From the IMG/VR virus record IMGVR_UViG_3300034101_006325, positions 32,001 through 96,000 of that record: a stretch of DNA of 64,000 nucleotides; one strand, 5' to 3'. Below, piece after piece: positions 1-32,695 of the stretch (the first letter of the stretch is position 1; each line of letters opens with the position of its first letter). This stretch comes from a virus (taxonomy: Duplodnaviria; Caudoviricetes). Below the pieces are notes generated by a model. The model did not search any database and had not been told where the DNA came from. It saw only the letters and a program-made list of their open reading frames with translations. A program made the translations under genes and the position numbers.

Positions 1-602
1 CAGTCATCAATAATTCCATTATAATAATGAATTTCTCGAGGATCATCGCACACAGCAAAATCGCTGTAATCGGGGTCAAGAACCAACTCAAAGTTAATTT
101 GTGTTTCCGACGACGACAAACCTTTTAGGACATTTACTAAAGATTGACCAACCTCTCGAGGACTAGAATTTTCGTACTCTTCAAGTTTACTCTTTACAAG
201 ATCAGTCAAGTCGTCCAAATTTAGCGCATCCCGTACAACTAACACATTAGGAGAATTTTGCAAGACATCAACTTCATTATTAAAGATATCATAAAGTCTG
301 GACAGGGATGTTGCGTCTTGGGCTTCGTCACCTCGTGAATTAAATCTTCGAAGAATCTCTTCCTTTGGAGGCAAAAGAACCACGACAAAGTTATTCAAAT
401 TGCTGACTTCTTTGGTCAAAGAAATACGATGATGTGACTCATCCCTACCGTAAAGCTTGGCGTAACACAGCATTGATAGACAAGATCTATCCTGAATATT
501 GTATTTAAAACCAGTCGAACGGTGTAAAGAAGAATAAAGTGAAGTTTTGCCGCTTAGATCAGAACCCTCAAGAATCAAGTAATTGACAGGAAGACTCATC
601 AT
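1..602 (-). CDS. dNMP/thymidylate-kinase-like P-loop kinase (3'-partial, runs off window start; absent from the ORF track)
   Basis: Manual translation from ATG 602 (overlaps the dnaE stop): MMSLPVNYLILEGSDLSGKTSLY...NIQDRSCLSMLCYAKLYGR...LLPPKEEILRRFNSRGDE; Tmk-type (I/L)EGxDxSGKT P-loop and DRxxxS motif; frame open to position 1. Confidence 0.8.
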   Translation of the reverse strand, partial: MMSLPVNYLILEGSDLSGKTSLYSSLHRSTGFKYNIQDRSCLSMLCYAKLYGRDESHHRISLTKEVSNLNNFVVVLLPPKEEILRRFNSRGDEAQDATSLSRLYDIFNNEVDVLQNSPNVLVVRDALNLDDLTDLVKSKLEEYENSSPREVGQSLVNVLKGLSSSETQINFELVLDPDYSDFAVCDDPREIHYYNGIIDD

Positions 603-3600
603 GCCACCTTTCTCAGCTTAAAAATTGATGTTGAAAATCCCCAACTAGGATCGTTCGATGCTTGACCTACCCAAAGTGTATAAGGATCAATAGATTCCGT
701 TGGATTACCCCAGATTCTAATCCAGCCTTGACGTGAATCATTGTCAATAGCCTTGCACCGATAGAATGCCTTTCCATTCTTTGTCTTTTTAAGGTTGACT
801 TCAGTCACGAGAAACCAACCTATACCGTCAGAACCAGGCTGTACATCGTGCAATGATTGGACACCTTTTTCAAGGAGTTTTTTCATAATGTCGGGAGGAA
901 ACAATAGATCGACGTCTGCTGTGGAAGTAAGATCATATGCCATGCTGATCTTTTCATCTCGCGTCCAATCTACAGTACTGGCTTGCTCCTCCAGCAACAC
1001 GTCAATTACTGGCAGCGGATCGATTCCTTCTTTTGCAAGCTTTTTTAGCTGAGCTGCAGTTAAACCATAGATTCCTTTTCGCAAGGTTTCATAATTTTTA
1101 TCTTCAGTCAAAGCCAACAATAATTGTCTGTGGTGTCTTACAGACCCTCCTTGAAAATCTTCAAGTGATTCCAGAGCTTCAATCTTGCAAAGTGCTGAAA
1201 GTGCAGTCTTATTGACCTTGCTGTGACGCCAATTTCCTTCTGCATCATAAAGCATTTCTTTGAGATTTTTGTAAGGTCTATTCTCCATAATTTCGTCGAC
1301 TGCAGTTGAACCAATACCCTTGGCTGAAGTAATAGGAGGAACAAATGCATCGGCTTTTTCAGAAAACTGCCATTCTTTACCTGAATAATTGATATCAATC
1401 TTGGAAAATTTGTATCCTAAAGACTTAATTTCACCAATTACCTTTGTCAGCTCTTTGGGATTTGAATTTGCCGACTGAAGAATCGTGGCAAGCCAGTCCT
1501 TCTCATAGTGAGTGTGGAGCCAGGCAGCATAGTAAGAGTCGATCGCATATGCGACGGAGTGTGACTTGTTGAAGCCATAGAGGGAGAAGAACTCGATCTT
1601 GTCGAACAGGGCATTGGTGATGTCCTCCGAGATTCCGTGGATCTCCTTTGCGCCCTTCACGAACTTCTCGCGGAGCATCGCCTTCTCGCCGCCCTTCTTG
1701 TCGAGGGTGTCGAGAGACTTCTTGACGAGAGTCTTGCGCATCTGATCTGACTCGCCAGGATTGAAGCCTGCAAGCTCAACGGCCAGGGACATGAACTGCT
1801 CCTGGAAAGTGATGAACCCGCGAGTCGGTCCGAGGACCTTCTCGATCAGCGGATGGTCGTATTTAATCTTGGTCAGGTCCTTGCCGGCGTCGACGTACAT
1901 GTTGTGGACGTTCGCTTTGAGGGGGCCAGGGCGATAGATCGCCGTGATTGCTGACAGGTCTTCGATGCAGTTTGGTTGAGACTGCATGCAGAACTTTCGA
2001 GCTCCCTGAGCAGTGAACTGAAACACTCCGACGAATCGTCCCTCATGGTAGACATGTTTCCAAACCTCGGGGTCGTCCTGCTTCACGTAGCGACAGTTGA
2101 GGTGCTTGTCGAAGAACGCCTTCACGTTGAGGAAGGTGGGATCAGGGTTTCCCTGGTTGACGAGGATCCGACGGATGCAGTTCTCCACGTCCTTGAGGAG
2201 CGTGAGTCCGAGGAAGTCGAACTTGAGGAAGCCGTTGTCCTCCAGGTTGCGGAAGTTCATGCCTTCCGTCCACGGGGTCTGCAGTTCGCCTCGGACGCCG
2301 ATGATGGGCATCGTGGCTGCAAGGTCGTCCGGATCTGCCACGATGACGCCGCCGGCGTGTCGACCGACGGATCGGTTCTGCATAAAGAGCGTCTCGACGT
2401 GTGCCGCGACGTCTGGGTACTTCTCCATGAATGCCTTGTACTTCGGAGAGTACTTCATGCAGTCCTCGTGCTTCAGGACGAAGACGGACTTCTCCTGATC
2501 GTCGTCGCGGGCGAGCGGCATCACCTCGTCCTGAAGCGGACCCGTCATCTCGTTCACCTCCTCGAAGGGCACGCCGTAGATCTTGGCGATGTCCTTGACG
2601 AGGGACTTGAGCTTCAAGGTGTTGAAGTTCGACACCGGGATCACAGCGTCGTCGCCGAACAGCTCGCGTGCCGAGTCGATCAGGGCATCGCGGTCGCCTG
2701 CGTCGGAGTCGATGTCGGGCCACGACACGCGATGGCGGCCTAGGAAACGGCTCCACAGGAGACCGTAAGGCAGGGGATCGATCTGAGTGATGCCGAGGAG
2801 GTAGTTGACGAGTGAACCTGCGCCTGAACCACGGCCGGGGCCGAACAGGGTCCGAGTCTCCGCCTTCTTGAAGATCTTGTACATCGTCACGAAGTAGGAA
2901 GCGTGACCGAGGTACTTGATGTCGGACAGCTCCTCCTTCACGCGGGCGACGTATTCTGGTTTGTCAGACAGGCCTTCACGAATCAGGGCCTCCTTGACGA
3001 GCTCAGTGAGCTGCTGGAATGTTGTCTTGCCTGGCATGTCCAGCTTCGGTAGCTTTGCTTTAACATCGACCCATGTATCCTCACAATGTTGCCATGCGAT
3101 ATCATGGGTCCTCTCGATGGCGTCTCGGACCTCCTCCTCGGAGCCTCGATAGAACTCGTACTGCTCGTAGGACTTCTTGTACTCGTCCCACATCTGGGAT
3201 GCATTCTTCGGATACAGCTCGCACTTAAGATCTTCGAACTTTGGAAGTGCCTGTTCGTCGAGCTTAGCACCCATCCATCCAAGCTTCTTGTAGAGCTCAC
3301 GGGCCTGCCACTTCGACGGGTCGGGATAGTGGGAATCGCAGGTGGCGAGCAGCTTGACGCCGGACTTTCGAGACAGGTCGATGAGGTACCTGTTGACCGT
3401 GTGCTGCTTCGGCAGCTTGTTGAACTGGATCTCGAGGAAGAAGTTCTCGGTCCCCACCGCATCCGTGAACCTGTCCGTGAGGTTCATCAGCTCGGAGATG
3501 ATCTGCTCCGAGTTCTTGCCGTAGGCCTCGCCGCGGAGGATCGTGCCGCTGTAGATTCCACCAAGGCAGGCCGTGGACCACACGATCCCCTTGCCGTACT

Positions 3601-4215
3601 TCCGGAGGAGGTCGAAGTCGATGCGTGGATAGCGGTAGAAACCGTCCTTGAACGACGCCTTCACGAGGCGATTGATGTTCGCGAGACCTTCGGCGGTCTG
3701 CGCCACCGCCACGAGGTGGTAGCGACGCTGCCAGTCGGGCTTCTCCTTGTAGTCGTCTGCCTTCGTCTCGTTCTCGTCCTCGACGACGTGTCCGCCGGCC
3801 TCTTCCTCCTCCACCTCGTCAGCGTCGACGTCGGTCCGGACCTTCGCCTTCTTCTCGGCCTCCGCAGCGGTCTTCGCGTCCTTGATCGCCTGCTTGTGTG
3901 CCTCGTAGTCGATCTTCCACTGTGTCAGCGAAGGAACGAAGTAGAACTCCACACCGTAGAGCTGCCGGTACTTCACGCCCTTCTTCTGCAGCTTCTTTGC
4001 TGCGGAATGAGCGTGTGCGAGGCCGTTGCCGTTGCCGTGGTCGGTCAGGGCCCACGCGTCCATCCCCTGTGATTCGGAGACAATCCACTTTATATGATCC
4101 TCGGGATAGCCAAGTCCGTCAAAAGTTGAGAAACCCGAAAAGCCGCCCCTGAACAAGCCAGGGGCGGCACCTACGAATGCGCGTGGAAACCGACGAATTT
4201 CTTCGGCGGCGTCAC
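599..4215 (-). CDS. dnaE: DNA polymerase III alpha subunit (family C, DnaE-type) with PHP domain; N-terminus discontinuous (see 4136-4176)
   Basis: Motifs TDHG, GVEFY, STACLGG, TCDSHY, GPGRGSGAGSLV, PDIDSD, GRHAGGV, KFDFLGL, YGFNKSHSVAY. Track ORF starts at TTG 4156 and lacks the first PHP motif, which is encoded upstream as GTG4215-MTPPKKFVGFHAHS after an AAGGAG RBS. Confidence 0.95.
4136..4176 (-). other. candidate translational-bypass (coding gap) element in dnaE
   Basis: TCG(4176-4174)-TAG-GT-GCCGCCCCTG-GCTTGTT-CAGGGGCGGC-TTT-TCG(4138-4136); skipping 38 nt restores HAHS-GFSTFDG. Confidence 0.75.
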
Positions 4216-4254
4216 ATCGCGCATCTCCTTAAAAGTGTTAGATGACATGATAAC

Positions 4255-4283
4255 AATCTAACACGCGAAATCTGTCGTTTACA
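4255..4283 (-). promoter_or_regulatory. sigma70-like promoter of dnaE
   Basis: TGTAAA-N17-TAGATT on minus strand; near-identical TGTAAA-N16-TAGACT upstream of the epimerase. Confidence 0.5.
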
Positions 4284-4304
4284 CACGGGAAGCAAATGCA
4301 GTTC

Positions 4305-4330
4305 GAGGCGAAACCCGAAGGAATCGCCTC
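4305..4330 (-). terminator. stable hairpin with cUUCGg tetraloop after the 83-aa gene
   Basis: GAGGCGA-TT-CC-TTCG-GG-TT-TCGCCTC on minus strand; no clear U-tract. Confidence 0.5.
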
Positions 4331-4355
4331 AATTGCGTTTCTTTGAGGCTCTTTC

Positions 4356-4607
4356 TCAGATGTCCGTGACGGTGCCGTCTTCGTCGAGCTTGAGACCGAC
4401 ATCAAAGAGCTGCTGATCAGTGATCGCGCCTGGATACACCGCGAGTGCAGACTCGAGATCCTCAATAGAGACATAGCCTCCCTCCAAGTAGATCTCATCG
4501 AATGCGTCACGGAGCTCGAGGTTGCTTACGGATTCACGTGTCTCTCGGATTACTTTTCGTGCTTCTTCCTTGATGATGGAACGCAACTGCTTTACTGTGA
4601 TCTTCAT
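4356..4607 (-). CDS. small protein with MKITxxQLxxIIKEE leader (putative head/internal protein)
   Basis: MKITVKQLRSIIKEE N-terminus shared with other ORFs; AAGGAG RBS; ATAATTA upstream. Confidence 0.7.
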   Translation of the reverse strand: MKITVKQLRSIIKEEARKVIRETRESVSNLELRDAFDEIYLEGGYVSIEDLESALAVYPGAITDQQLFDVGLKLDEDGTVTDI

Positions 4608-4643: not shown

Positions 4644-5648
4644 CTAATTATTAGGACATTTTGGAAAGTGCTGCAAGAGGTCAAACTTATGCTCGGCCGC
4701 CTCGTCGAGGTACTTTAGCGGATTATAGTCGGAAGAATTGCGGATCCATTCCAGCGTCCGCTGAATACCGTCGAGCAAATCAAGTGTTGGTTTCCAACCA
4801 AGCTTTTCTCGAATTTTTCTGGATGACAACCGGTGGTTTCCGAGATAGTCTGTTGTCGGGTGCCACCTCACGAGATCAGATGCCGATGCACCGACAACAT
4901 CGTCTATAATCTTCATCACTTCTCCTGCAGGCACTGGTGTCTCCGCGGAGACGTTCCAGTCTGTCCCCCAACCGGGCCCGGAGACGTCGCGGCATACTAG
5001 CTCAACAGCCCTGCAAAAATCCTCCACATGGAGGTAGTCCTTTACCTTCGTCGGATCCAGAAACATATCCACGGATTTCTTTCCGTTGAGGTAAGCATAA
5101 ATCGACTTCGCGATGAGCGAATTCATATCACCGAGGCCACCAAACGCGAATAGCGGTCGAACGATAGTCCACCTATCTGCCATTGCTGTGACAATCTGTT
5201 CTGCGGCGAGCTTCTGGACGCCATAATAAGTCCGAGGAATCTTTGTTGAATTTTCTACAATCTGTTCGTCTTGATAACTCTTCGTATCATAGATGACAGT
5301 TGTTCCTAGATAGCAAACTGCAGCCTTTGCTCGATTGGCAGCACGAACAATGTTGTATGTGCCTTGGACGTTGGATAGTGTCGCCTCTGCAGGATCAAGG
5401 GCAACCACGTCTGTTCCGACCACAGCAGCATTGTGAACGACGACGTCGACATCATTGTCGTAAAGCGCTTTATGCCAAGTTTCCTCCGAATTCCTGTGGA
5501 TGCATGCCTCCCCGGTGCGTGGAAACTTGACGTAATCTATTCCCTCGAACAGATCCTTGTCGGTCACGACTTCCTGTGAAAGAGATTCTAGAACGACCTT
5601 GAGATTACGAGCGATCAGGCCCTGTGGTCCGGTGATATAGTACTTCAT
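4644..5648 (-). CDS. NAD-dependent NDP-sugar epimerase/dehydratase (extended SDR)
   Basis: ITGPQGLIA Rossmann motif, VVHNAA, YYGVQK (YxxxK), IVRP, DYLHVEDF, WKPTLDLLDGI. Confidence 0.9.
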   Translation of the reverse strand: MKYYITGPQGLIARNLKVVLESLSQEVVTDKDLFEGIDYVKFPRTGEACIHRNSEETWHKALYDNDVDVVVHNAAVVGTDVVALDPAEATLSNVQGTYNIVRAANRAKAAVCYLGTTVIYDTKSYQDEQIVENSTKIPRTYYGVQKLAAEQIVTAMADRWTIVRPLFAFGGLGDMNSLIAKSIYAYLNGKKSVDMFLDPTKVKDYLHVEDFCRAVELVCRDVSGPGWGTDWNVSAETPVPAGEVMKIIDDVVGASASDLVRWHPTTDYLGNHRLSSRKIREKLGWKPTLDLLDGIQRTLEWIRNSSDYNPLKYLDEAAEHKFDLLQHFPKCPNN

Positions 5649-5784: not shown

Positions 5785-6258
5785 TCACTCAATTTCCTTG
5801 TCGTAAGGCTCATACAACAGCTCACCAGCAGTCTTACAGCGCTCGAGGTAATCCTCCAACTGATCAAATGATGTGCAGACCTTGATGCCGCTGCGACTGA
5901 GCATCAAATTAAACTTTGCACCAGAAGGGAGATTTTCGCAGAAATAAACGATCTTGGTGCCGTATGCATATGATGCACCGGCCTCCCAGATGGTACCAAT
6001 GTCGCGGTATGTCGTGTTGACGAGGCAGAAATCAGCCTTCTTGATGTGATCAACATTGCCCTTGAACACATTGTCCTGTACCTCCTGCGTTGCATCTGGT
6101 GGACAGACGAAGATTCGACGGGGGGACGCAAGGTTTATCCAGGCAGAGCGATCGTCAAAGACCTTTTCCAACTTTGTGAGTTGCTTGTCCTGATCTGGAG
6201 AAAACCAACCTGATGCCAAATATACGTGAAGCTTACGACCAAAATTATTAGCGCTCAT
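5785..6258 (-). CDS. nucleoside 2-deoxyribosyltransferase / nucleotide N-glycosidase (NDT/Rcl/MilB superfamily)
   Basis: VYLASGWFS, HIKKADF, DIGTIWEAG (catalytic Glu motif). Confidence 0.85.
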   Translation of the reverse strand: MSANNFGRKLHVYLASGWFSPDQDKQLTKLEKVFDDRSAWINLASPRRIFVCPPDATQEVQDNVFKGNVDHIKKADFCLVNTTYRDIGTIWEAGASYAYGTKIVYFCENLPSGAKFNLMLSRSGIKVCTSFDQLEDYLERCKTAGELLYEPYDKEIE

Positions 6259-31515: not shown

Positions 31516-32695
31516 CTGTCATTCCTCCTTCTCCATCACCCTCCCCAGAAGGATCTCCTCCTGTGGTCACAAGTGCTGAGTCAATAACTGTCAAAAGATA
31601 GTTTCTGTATTTCTCATCCTTCAGCATTTCACCAAATTCCGACTTATAAAACTTCTTTTCCAATACAACTTCGCCTGTCTTTGCATTGACGACTGAAAGC
31701 TCTTTCCAAGCACCCTCTCCGCTGAGATTGATCTCAAGACCGTCTCGTTTCACAGGACCGTTGGCCTTGCAGTGAGCACGAGACTCATCGAAAAGATATT
31801 CGTCTTCGACGATGCCTTTGCCAAAGATGATGTCAAATTCGCACTTTCTAAATGGTGCTGCAACCTTGTTCTTTTTAATTGTGACCGTTGTATGAATACC
31901 GATGGTATTGCCGGCCTTGTCCTTTACCTGATTTCCGCTACCGAGTCGAATGCGAACCGACGAATGAAATGGAATAGCCTTCCCACCGGGTGTCACTGCT
32001 GGGTCTCCATGCATTACACCGATGTTGTCGCGGAGCTGATTGATGCAGAGCAACGTCACGTTGTTCTGGCCAATGACACCCGTAATCTTGCGCATGCCTT
32101 TGGAGATCGCTCGAGCCTGAAGACCGATGGAGTTTTGGTCATAATCGCCATCCAGTTCTGCCTTTGGAGAAGTTGCAGCTACTGAATCCCAGATGACAAG
32201 GATAGGAATGTTCTTTTCAAGAATTTGCTTTGCCTTGGTGATTGTGGACTCAATGATCGAGAAAACCTCTTCAGTACAGTGCGAGTCACAATAGACAAAA
32301 CGCTTGCGAACATCTACACCCATGTCAGCCAATTTGGCAACAGGCGTGGCATTTTCTGTATCAATGTAGACAACCAATCCTCCCATCTGTTGGACAACGG
32401 CTGCTGCATGATAGGCAAGATGTGACTTTCCGCTTGAAGGAAGTCCACTGATCTCAATGATTCGTCCTTCAGGATAGCCGCCATCCATCGCATTTCTGAT
32501 AGCATAATTTAATTGAATTGATCCCGTGTCGATCCATCGCTTTACGACAGTCGGTGCATCCATCTCAGAAAGATTATAAGCAATTCTTTGACCAAATTCC
32601 TTGTTGATGGAGGTAATGAGATCCTTCATCATGCTGTCGACTTCGGACTTTTTTGAAACTGTTTCGACGTCTTCAAACTTTTCTTTTCTTGCCAT
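31508..32695 (-). CDS. recA: RecA/UvsX recombinase
   Basis: GRIIEISGLPSSGKS, YIDTE, IWDSVAA, INQLR, TPGGKAIPFHSSVRI, KNKVAAPF. Confidence 0.95.
   Translation of the reverse strand: MARKEKFEDVETVSKKSEVDSMMKDLITSINKEFGQRIAYNLSEMDAPTVVKRWIDTGSIQLNYAIRNAMDGGYPEGRIIEISGLPSSGKSHLAYHAAAVVQQMGGLVVYIDTENATPVAKLADMGVDVRKRFVYCDSHCTEEVFSIIESTITKAKQILEKNIPILVIWDSVAATSPKAELDGDYDQNSIGLQARAISKGMRKITGVIGQNNVTLLCINQLRDNIGVMHGDPAVTPGGKAIPFHSSVRIRLGSGNQVKDKAGNTIGIHTTVTIKKNKVAAPFRKCEFDIIFGKGIVEDEYLFDESRAHCKANGPVKRDGLEINLSGEGAWKELSVVNAKTGEVVLEKKFYKSEFGEMLKDEKYRNYLLTVIDSALVTTGGDPSGEGDGEGGMTDE

Follow-up and report, generated by a model that had tools for sequence, protein, structure and literature searches.

The family-C DNA polymerase gene dnaE of an uncultured freshwater jumbo phage is split by 38 nucleotides (nt) within the first motif of its PHP domain, and we propose that this gap is probably crossed by programmed translational bypassing, with ribosomes leaving the mRNA at a UCG serine codon (4176–4174) and resuming at a second UCG (4138–4136). 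The gene is located on the minus strand of a 64,000-nt stretch of DNA, hereafter the window, which comprises positions 32,001 to 96,000 of the 200,303-base-pair (bp) IMG/VR virus record IMGVR_UViG_3300034101_006325 (Duplodnaviria; Caudoviricetes); coordinates without a locus name are those of the window. A first-pass annotation, made from the letters of the window, had suggested a ribosome hop at this position, and comparison with related phages supports the suggestion through the three phases of homologous 38-, 39- and 40-nt gaps, a shared codon rule and conserved stems. To our knowledge, gene 60 of phage T4, with its homologues, is the only experimentally established case in which bacterial ribosomes carry out programmed bypassing efficiently. 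All mechanistic rules rest on the gene 60 sequence, and an independent system would show which of them are general.

A coding gap within the PHP motif of dnaE

The features of the locus are compiled in Table 1. The first-pass annotation had listed a UCG codon, a UAG stop, a hairpin, UUU, a second UCG and a change of frame, and each of these elements is present. After GTG 4215–4213 the minus strand reads MTPPKKFVGFHAHS, followed by TCG (4176–4174) and TAG (4173–4171); codon by codon, the letters leading to take-off are AAG GAG ATG CGC GAT GTG ACG CCG CCG AAG AAA TTC GTC GGT TTC CAC GCG CAT TCG TAG. Past the TAG come GTG, a hairpin arm CCGCCCCTG, the loop GCTTGTT, the opposite arm CAGGGGCGG and C TTT. 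Reading then resumes as TCG GGT TTC TCA ACT TTT GAC, giving GFSTFDG in a frame that differs from that of the first segment, and the two TCG codons are spaced by 38 nt. The open reading frame (ORF) obtained by mechanical calling, 599–4156, begins at a TTG within the hairpin loop, as had been pointed out before.

The structure in the gap stands out from its surroundings. The inverted repeat GCCGCCCCTG / CAGGGGCGGC at 4168–4142 is the sole match in the window, where the expectation from shuffling is 0, and a 116-nt region folds with −51.7 kcal/mol (z = −4.58), a value that none of the shuffles equals. In the phage genome, which has a GC content of 39.5%, perfect stems of at least 9 bp and at least 60% GC occur seven times in 200 kb, and the gap hairpin is the most GC-rich of them (89%).

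Downstream of the gap, DnaE is complete, with PHP, DNA_pol3_alpha, finger and HHH_6 domains, and this second segment aligns over its full length with the polymerases of the related loci L002 and L004. The downstream PHP ligands that had been described as intact (TDHG, GVE and DSH) are present, and the dnaE of the window does not contain an intein. Joining the two segments at the UCG codons restores HAHSGFSTFDG, as first proposed from the window, in the same layout as in relatives without a gap, and the joined sequence aligns gap-free to the HxH...D ligand motif at residues 6–27 of Thermus aquaticus DnaE (2HPI). In a second entry of the T. aquaticus enzyme, 3E0D, the Asp of this motif is replaced by Asn, which in our own reading is consistent with a functional role of the Asp in the PHP domain.

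Table 1. Features of the interrupted dnaE locus in the window
Feature	Positions	Strand	Remarks
First coding segment of dnaE, 25 codons	4174–4248	minus	encodes MSSNTFKEMRDVTPPKKFVGFHAHS, with the HxH metal ligands of PHP motif I; start codon inferred
GTG proposed as start by the first-pass annotation	4213–4215	minus	probably an internal Val codon; GTC in L043, L045 and L188
5′ stem-loop, ~20 bp, in first coding segment	4176–4225	minus	RNAalifold consensus, pair counts, single-sequence minimum free energy
Take-off codon UCG (Ser)	4174–4176	minus	invariant in 7/7 type-A sequences
Stop codon UAG directly 3′ of take-off	4171–4173	minus	UAG or UAA in all type-A sequences
Untranslated gap, 38 nt, stop codon through landing codon	4136–4173	minus	homologous gaps of 38, 39 and 40 nt
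Gap hairpin, 10-bp GC stem, 7-nt loop	4142–4168	minus	kept in all type-A sequences; loops variable
TTG in hairpin loop, dnaE start by mechanical ORF calling	4154–4156	minus	probably unused
Shine-Dalgarno (SD)-like AGGGG, 3′ hairpin arm	4146–4150	minus	7 nt 5′ of landing codon; AGAGG in relatives
Landing codon UCG (Ser)	4136–4138	minus	UCG or UCA in all type-A sequences
Second coding segment of dnaE, GFSTFDG to stop codon	599–4135	minus	complete family-C polymerase body

The insert is present in independent metagenomes

Runs of 18 studies, mostly labelled freshwater or lake, contain the stretch. In run X2, which belongs to another study, one contig spans 3822–4400 unbroken and includes the insert, and a 3366-nt contig from X3, a viral metagenome, spans 3783–4400 with one substitution and one extra T. 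This T lies in the U-run before the landing codon (window 4137–4138) and creates a 39-nt gap in a strain that is 99.8% identical, such that the phase between the two coding parts is altered. Gaps homologous to that of the window (type A) were found in at least six further contigs from different samples. Although the window derives from a metagenome-assembled contig that is estimated to be 61% complete, we therefore see a negligible chance that the insert arose through faulty assembly or sequencing, or as a recent dead-end mutation confined to a single genome; both had been raised as concerns by the first-pass annotation. A precise DNA deletion between TTCG repeats, which would restore the gene, was also considered and rejected, because the 40-nt relatives have no such repeat. 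Among GenBank phages, megablast with the locus gave no match and tblastn detected DnaE only, at 24–33% identity; hence there is no cultured relative and no experimental system.

Related phages carry gaps of several designs at two sites

Relatives were gathered by two collection scans and by contig look-ups for database proteins with an internal-Met start. Relatives at 62% DnaE identity or less have an unbroken HxH(S/T)xFSxFDG, with the exception of L195 and L197/L198, and the gap is also absent from the close relatives L001/L037, L042, L046, L047, L048 and L094. Thus, the contiguous motif to be looked for in phages without the insert is found, apart from the three loci named. In the close clade, 18 loci have a gap, and these gaps represent 14 distinct sequences with lengths of 5 to 68 nt (Table 2). 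They occupy two sites that are three codons apart (HAHS^GFS^TFDG), always straight after a Ser codon, and both sites separate the HxH ligands from the Asp, a distance that is constant across gapless relatives and 2HPI.

Table 2. Gaps in dnaE of the window and of related loci
Type and site	Locus	Length	Take-off and stop	Landing	Structure
Type A, site 1	window	38 nt	TCG then TAG	TCG	10-bp GC hairpin
Type A, site 1	L039, L191	39 nt	TCG then TAA	TCG	9-bp GC hairpin
Type A, site 1	L188/L189	40 nt	TCG then TAG	TCG	10-bp GC hairpin
Type A, site 1	L040, L045	40 nt	TCG then TAG	TCA	10-bp GC hairpin
Type A, site 1	L043/L044	40 nt	TCG then TAA	TCA	9-bp GC hairpin
Type B, site 1	L003/L038	68 nt	TCT, stop 6 codons on	TCA	20-bp stem
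Type B, site 1	L041	66 nt	TCT, stop 6 codons on	TCT	~18-bp stem
Type B, site 1	L192	56 nt	TCG, stop 8 codons on	TCG	21-bp stem
Short, site 2	L049	5 nt	TCG then TAA	ACG	very short structure
Short, site 2	L195	9 nt	TCG then TAG	TCT	palindrome
Short, site 2	L002/L190	10 nt	TCG then TAA	ACG	palindrome
Short, site 2	L193	12 nt	TCC then TGA	TCC	palindrome
Short, site 2	L194	12 nt	TCC then TAG	TCC	weak structure
Short, site 2	L197/L198	12 nt	TCG then TAA	TCA	no structure seen

A codon rule is shared by these gaps. The take-off codon encodes Ser in all 14 distinct gaps (TCG, TCT or TCC), a stop follows immediately in 11 of them, and the triplet preceding the resumed frame is TCN in 12 (ACG in the 5- and 10-nt gaps). 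At site 2, the gaps of all eight loci (seven gap sequences) open with a stop codon, which may be TAA, TAG or TGA.

With lengths of 38, 39 and 40 nt, the type-A gaps place the two coding segments in all three relative phases, so that no single frameshift or readthrough event would serve and the lengths agree only with a mechanism by which the gap is disregarded. Although the two segments share a frame in the 39-nt forms, a stop intervenes, and the downstream frame of the 40-nt forms is open for just 8 codons 5′ of the landing codon. A programmed −1 frameshift in the window, or stop readthrough in the in-frame relatives, would carry the ribosome through the hairpin and add ~13 residues to the PHP motif. 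In the window, a −1 shift at the stop is possible in principle, as 31 codons 5′ of the landing codon are open in the downstream frame, and a hairpin a few nt past a stop resembles known recoding stimulators. Nevertheless, the three gap lengths would demand three different events, the downstream frame of the 40-nt forms is closed too near the landing codon, and CAU UCG UAG lacks a slippery heptamer. In addition, extra residues between HxH and Asp would break the spacing that every gapless relative and 2HPI maintain, and we consider frameshifting or readthrough to be very improbable.

The first coding segment is retained along with the gap. The upstream mini-ORF is open and encodes RFVG[LF]H[AS]HS in 18 of 18 gap-bearing loci, including clades that are 62–75% identical to the window, its substitutions affect the same positions that vary in gapless homologues, pointing to selection at the protein level, and KEMRDV(T/R)PP is kept in type-A first segments. 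The downstream bodies of the window and L188 share 94% amino acid identity and 78–83% nucleotide identity, a comparison that indicates strong purifying selection. An in-frame ATG, GTG or TTG within the gap is absent from 13 of the 16 tabulated loci (L197 included), and the six other type-A sequences have none in the interval that separates their final in-frame stop from the landing codon. As no start codon is conserved within the gap, the TTG of the window appears incidental, and the option of initiating separately is not shared across the loci.

These findings bear on the alternative that the insert inactivates the 5′ end, with DnaE made from an internal start (TTG 4156, or a Met ~32 codons further on) and devoid of its first PHP strand, or with the gene decaying and the mini-ORF a relic. 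Gene callers do choose such starts: many public DnaE proteins of the clade are 1148–1155 amino acids long and begin at an internal Met, among them a set with lengths of 1150–1155 residues that starts at the Met of ...QGMDAW (P0003, P0005, P0009, P0010, P0016, P0017, P0021, P0027, P0028, P0030, P0032 and P0094). Moreover, the PHP domain is not catalytic in every DnaE. We regard an internal start as unlikely, however, because a mini-ORF with intact HxHS stays open in every gap-bearing locus, because its changes are conservative or synonymous, the synonymous ones compensating each other in a stem, and because the TTG is unconserved while the rest of the gene bears the signature of purifying selection. 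Rather, gene callers cannot cross the gap, and recoding at this site would thereby be hidden in the databases.

Two conserved stem-loops flank the take-off codon

RNAalifold analysis of the seven type-A sequences yields two predicted helices, a 20-pair stem-loop in the first coding segment (4225–4176) and the gap hairpin (4167–4143). The closing stem of the 5′ stem-loop is formed by AUGCGCG/CGCGCAU, with its last pair taking the U of the take-off UCG. Across the two stems, 98% of cells are paired, compared with 30–49% when the partners are slid by 1–3 columns. Three pairs show compensatory changes, one in the gap stem (C-G to U-A) and two in the coding stem. Of the latter, one changes from G-C to C-G, combining GTG→GTC with TTC/CTC→CTG, and the other from G-C to A-U, combining CCG→CCA with GTC→GTT; both retain the Val, Pro, Val and Leu/Phe residue classes. 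A further substitution, GAG→GAA in L191, converts a G-U pair to A-U.

Other positions vary freely among type-A sequences, namely the loop, the stop (UAG/UAA) and the spacer before landing (UUU, ACUUA, CCUUUA, CUUUUA or CAUUUA). The landing codon stays UCR despite the changes in spacer length and sequence, and a purine-rich tract is located 7–9 nt 5′ of it, which in the window corresponds to the SD-like AGGGG (4150–4146) already recognized by the first-pass annotation. Matched codons and covarying stems had been named there as the pattern to look for in insert-bearing relatives; Ser take-off, immediate stop and Ser landing are indeed kept, and the stems covary.

The type-B stems of L003, L041 and L192, with 18–21 bp, are mutually unrelated in sequence. 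All of them begin at A-UUC-N and thus include the take-off codon. We also considered, and rejected, a take-off from the codon before the loop stop in type B: an Asn-to-Asn hop would be possible in L003, L041 offers no matching codon, and in L192 a stop directly precedes the landing UCG. Several of the site-2 gaps form small palindromes from the take-off codon together with the stop, with CGTAA/TTACG in L002, CGTAGAT/ATCTACG in L195 and CCTG/CAGG in L193.

A model for bypassing of the dnaE gap

In the model that we favour, ribosomes would initiate at an upstream ATG, probably 4248, read 25 codons and pause with peptidyl-tRNA(Ser) on UCG 4176–4174, the UAG in the A site and the GC hairpin just downstream. 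The peptidyl-tRNA would then release its codon and the ribosome would slide past the hairpin without decoding, while the 20-bp stem-loop of the first segment would refold behind it and favour forward movement. Upon re-pairing of the anticodon with UCG 4138–4136, decoding would restart at GGU, yielding a single DnaE chain ...FVGFHAHS-GFSTFDG... with the junction peptide ...FVGFHAHSGFSTFDGLGYPEDHIK. Functions for both stems and for the SD-like tract are suggested by analogy with gene 60 signals, and the hop and its efficiency are what we infer from the sequences compared here.

Several observations weigh against this model. The ACG landing triplets of the 5- and 10-nt gaps match the take-off codon at two of three positions, and in type-B gaps the stop is not adjacent to take-off but lies 6–8 codons on. 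The nascent chain at take-off has at most 25 residues, compared with 46 in gene 60; the exit tunnel would be unfilled, and a key stimulator of gene 60 bypassing thus lacks an obvious counterpart. Because the sequences are few and related, the three compensatory changes perhaps represent only two or three events, and recent spread, instead of selection, could account in part for how well the first segment is conserved at the nucleotide level. Aragorn found no tRNA or tmRNA on the 200-kb contig, and hence there is no phage tRNA(Ser) to invoke. Finally, no RNA run was found to span the gap; the two RNA-type runs compared, X25 and X20, cover other parts of dnaE only, at the identity expected of relatives.

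That no RNA read spans the gap also speaks for a different route, in which the gap is removed from the mRNA, for example by a nuclease cut at the hairpin base followed by RNA ligase action or as a micro-intron, and translation is ordinary. In DNA comparisons, a structured insert of variable length that is missing from the product looks identical under either mechanism, and stems joining both gap ends, notably those of type B, would suit cutting out. On the other hand, 38 nt is far below the size of any known self-splicing intron, and Rfam gave no match at the site with E values up to 1. Excision has no need for a stop behind the first Ser codon nor for a second Ser codon at the 3′ end, both of which are kept in all type-A and most site-2 gaps, and cut sites would be poorly marked, if at all, in the 5- to 12-nt gaps, where structure is scant or absent. 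We know of no mRNA cut-and-rejoin pathway of this kind in bacteria or phages, and consider excision improbable relative to bypassing.

Start codon and the question of a terminator

The first-pass annotation had placed the start of dnaE at GTG 4215 with AAGGAG as ribosome binding site, an assignment that the relatives do not bear out. The GTG is replaced by GTC in the type-A relatives L043, L045 and L188, and AAGGAG, which is in frame as Lys-Glu, reads AAGGAA in L191. All type-A relatives have an in-frame ATG 5–8 codons further upstream, at 4248–4246 in the window, and gapless relatives have N-termini of matching length and layout (MSxxx..RPPxRFVG[LF]HxHS). On these grounds, we assign the dnaE start to ATG 4248–4246 with moderate confidence; no good SD sequence is found 5′ of this ATG, and AAGGAG is probably coding sequence.

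The gap hairpin had also been likened to an intrinsic terminator, an interpretation that finds no support here. A terminator scan does not list it, with only four U on its 3′ side where an intrinsic terminator would have a tract of at least 5, and the tail that follows, UUUUCGGG in the window, is short and is interrupted in relatives, for example as ACUUAUCG and CCUUUAUCA.

Gaps are linked to a nuclease cassette in relatives

Judged from sequence identity, the first segment and the gap behave as a cassette that moves as a unit. Over the 57 nt of the first segment, the window and L040 are 100% identical, compared with 65–90% for the downstream gene (69% over most of it) and unrelated DNA upstream. 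Similarly, L188 and L043 have identical first segments (100%), and their downstream genes share mostly ~70% nucleotide identity. Gap types are scattered on the DnaE tree, where L049, with a 5-nt gap at site 2, is sister to the type-A loci L043–45 and the window groups, with weak support, with the gapless L001. We further note that, over the 300 nt upstream of dnaE with their nuclease remnant, L040 and L043 are 98% identical, as against ~72% in the dnaE bodies and 81% in the first segments; recombination breakpoints thus cluster at the dnaE 5′ end.

In L002/L190 and L049, a gene of ~300 codons ends 30–70 nt before the first segment (L002:2004–2897, L049:481–1410). The predicted protein is rich in Cys towards its N terminus, its C-terminal domain scores 29.0 bits against Phage_endo_I (cut-off 29.1), and it matches PHROG endonuclease families with E values of ~1e-12 to 1e-13. 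C-terminal remnants of this nuclease, ending in ...ILWEGK, abut the first segment in L194, L039, L191, L040, L043 and L045. Gapless loci have no nuclease gene at this position, L001 having only a distant relative inside an intein insert, and no homologue of the nuclease is found on the 200-kb contig of the window (best E 0.058). The ~300-residue protein is a probable free-standing homing nuclease of a T7-endonuclease-I-like type not previously linked to bypassing.

The gap may thus have arrived with a cassette consisting of a homing-type nuclease gene, a new dnaE 5′ end and the gap itself. It interrupts the most conserved DNA of dnaE, the likely target of the nuclease, and we suggest that it would protect the cassette from its own nuclease, with target-site protection as the reason for the gap; the phage of the window would later have lost the nuclease gene. 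More broadly, we consider it reasonably likely, if somewhat less so than bypassing in the window itself, that bypassing evolved in this freshwater jumbo-phage clade without any connection to T4 gene 60 and more than once. In this view, nuclease-borne cassettes would repeatedly have inserted gaps of 5–68 nt behind the two Ser codons of the PHP motif, the gaps belonging to three or more unrelated designs, and the polymerase would be made only by hopping.

A second type of interruption occurs elsewhere in the gene. In L001 (4416–5771) and L003 (2564–4154), dnaE is also broken at residue 477–484 by 1.4–1.6 kb with a frame change, and Hint and Intein_splicing domains are present at this break in the clade proteins P0002, P0006, P0008 and P0011. 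The L001 insert contains a relative of the upstream nuclease at 5257–5430. This layout matches that of a 'fractured gene', in which a split intein is combined with a free-standing nuclease (Dassa 2009).

Comparison with known bypass systems

The closest parallel is gene 60/mobA of T4, with a 50-nt bypass gap, the Gly codon GGA and a 46-residue nascent peptide (Huang 1988; Bonocora 2011; Manning and Atkins 2022, bioRxiv 10.1101/2022.08.31.505936). In both systems, an untranslated gap of tens of nt lies in an essential replication gene, take-off and landing codons match, a stop comes straight after take-off, one stem-loop is located 5′ of take-off and another in the gap, and a purine-rich SD-like tract (GAG in gene 60) shortly precedes landing. 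Moreover, relatives of the window's phage have a free-standing nuclease gene upstream that travels with a new 5′ segment and the gap, and loss of the nuclease leaving the gap behind is comparable to the 'hit and run' clades described for mobA (Manning and Atkins 2022, bioRxiv 10.1101/2022.08.31.505936).

The differences are nevertheless substantial. The gap interrupts the PHP motif of dnaE rather than the Toprim domain of a topoisomerase, and uses Ser UCG and 38–40 nt in place of Gly GGA and 50 nt. The type-A hairpin begins 5 nt past the take-off codon and leaves this codon outside the stem, and the nascent peptide is at most 25 residues long, not 46. Whereas MobA is an HNH nuclease encoded inside its gene, the nuclease of the relatives is T7-endonuclease-I-like (PD-(D/E)XK) and is encoded before the gene. 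Several non-homologous gap types share one site in dnaE, where bypassing is proposed from sequence comparison. Membership in the gene 60/mobA family was accordingly rejected, given the DnaE host gene and a Phage_endo_I-like rather than HNH nuclease; the dnaE system is an analogue, not a member.

The 'byps' of Magnusiomyces capitatus mitochondria are dispersed in many copies per genome, according to the account of Lang 2014 and Nosek 2015 in Manning and Atkins 2022. As far as that account describes them, they resemble the dnaE gap as GC-rich hairpins in an AT-rich genome, with matched flanking codons and phase-free lengths, in essential genes. They differ in that the gap of the window is a single, non-mitochondrial copy in 200 kb and its spread seems tied to a nuclease cassette. 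The possibility that the hairpin is itself a dispersed mobile element was rejected: the pattern combined with the take-off context has no match in viral contigs, and the bare hairpin pattern occurs at 71 loci, all of them generic GC-rich hairpins with unrelated loops, which with few exceptions belong to high-GC phages.

Short stop-hops in E. coli, in which 9 nt specify one amino acid, are summarized by Manning and Atkins 2022 as being of low efficiency and occurring under artificial or starved conditions. From this summary, the 5- to 12-nt gaps at site 2 (L002, L049, L193, L194, L195 and L197) appear similar, in that a codon is followed by a stop and, a few nt later, by a second codon that matches it fully or nearly. 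They are, however, conserved and in an essential gene, and the gap of the window is far longer and structured.

Bypassing was dismissed by Dassa 2009 (PMC2677866) for inserts of hundreds of bases in fractured dnaE genes, which combine split inteins with free-standing homing endonucleases. These genes likewise represent DnaE of uncultured aquatic phages invaded by free-standing nucleases, but the fractures are repaired by protein trans-splicing and are located elsewhere in the gene. Full-text literature searches returned no report of bypass gaps in DnaE, and Dassa 2009 was the one paper on mobile elements in dnaE that they brought up.

The dnaE system differs from gene 60 in gene, codon, stem layout and nuclease family, and offers natural variants from 5 to 68 nt. 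Codon matching, the stop at take-off and the presence of a stem on either side would be likely candidates for general rules of bypassing, and the length of the nascent peptide and the inclusion of the take-off codon in the hairpin are possibly specific to gene 60. If our model holds, the 38-nt form of the window, with two hairpins and a short nascent chain, would show that bacterial ribosomes can achieve efficient bypassing in another way as well. The dnaE gaps support the view that bypass gaps arise as self-protection of homing-nuclease cassettes, and the polymerases shortened by gene callers suggest that such recoding is overlooked in viral metagenomes.

Genes upstream of dnaE

Upstream of dnaE, also on the minus strand, are genes for an NAD-dependent sugar epimerase/dehydratase (4644–5648) and a protein of the nucleoside 2-deoxyribosyltransferase family (5785–6258). 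The two form an unusual neighbourhood for a polymerase gene, which may be linked to nucleotide or DNA modification.

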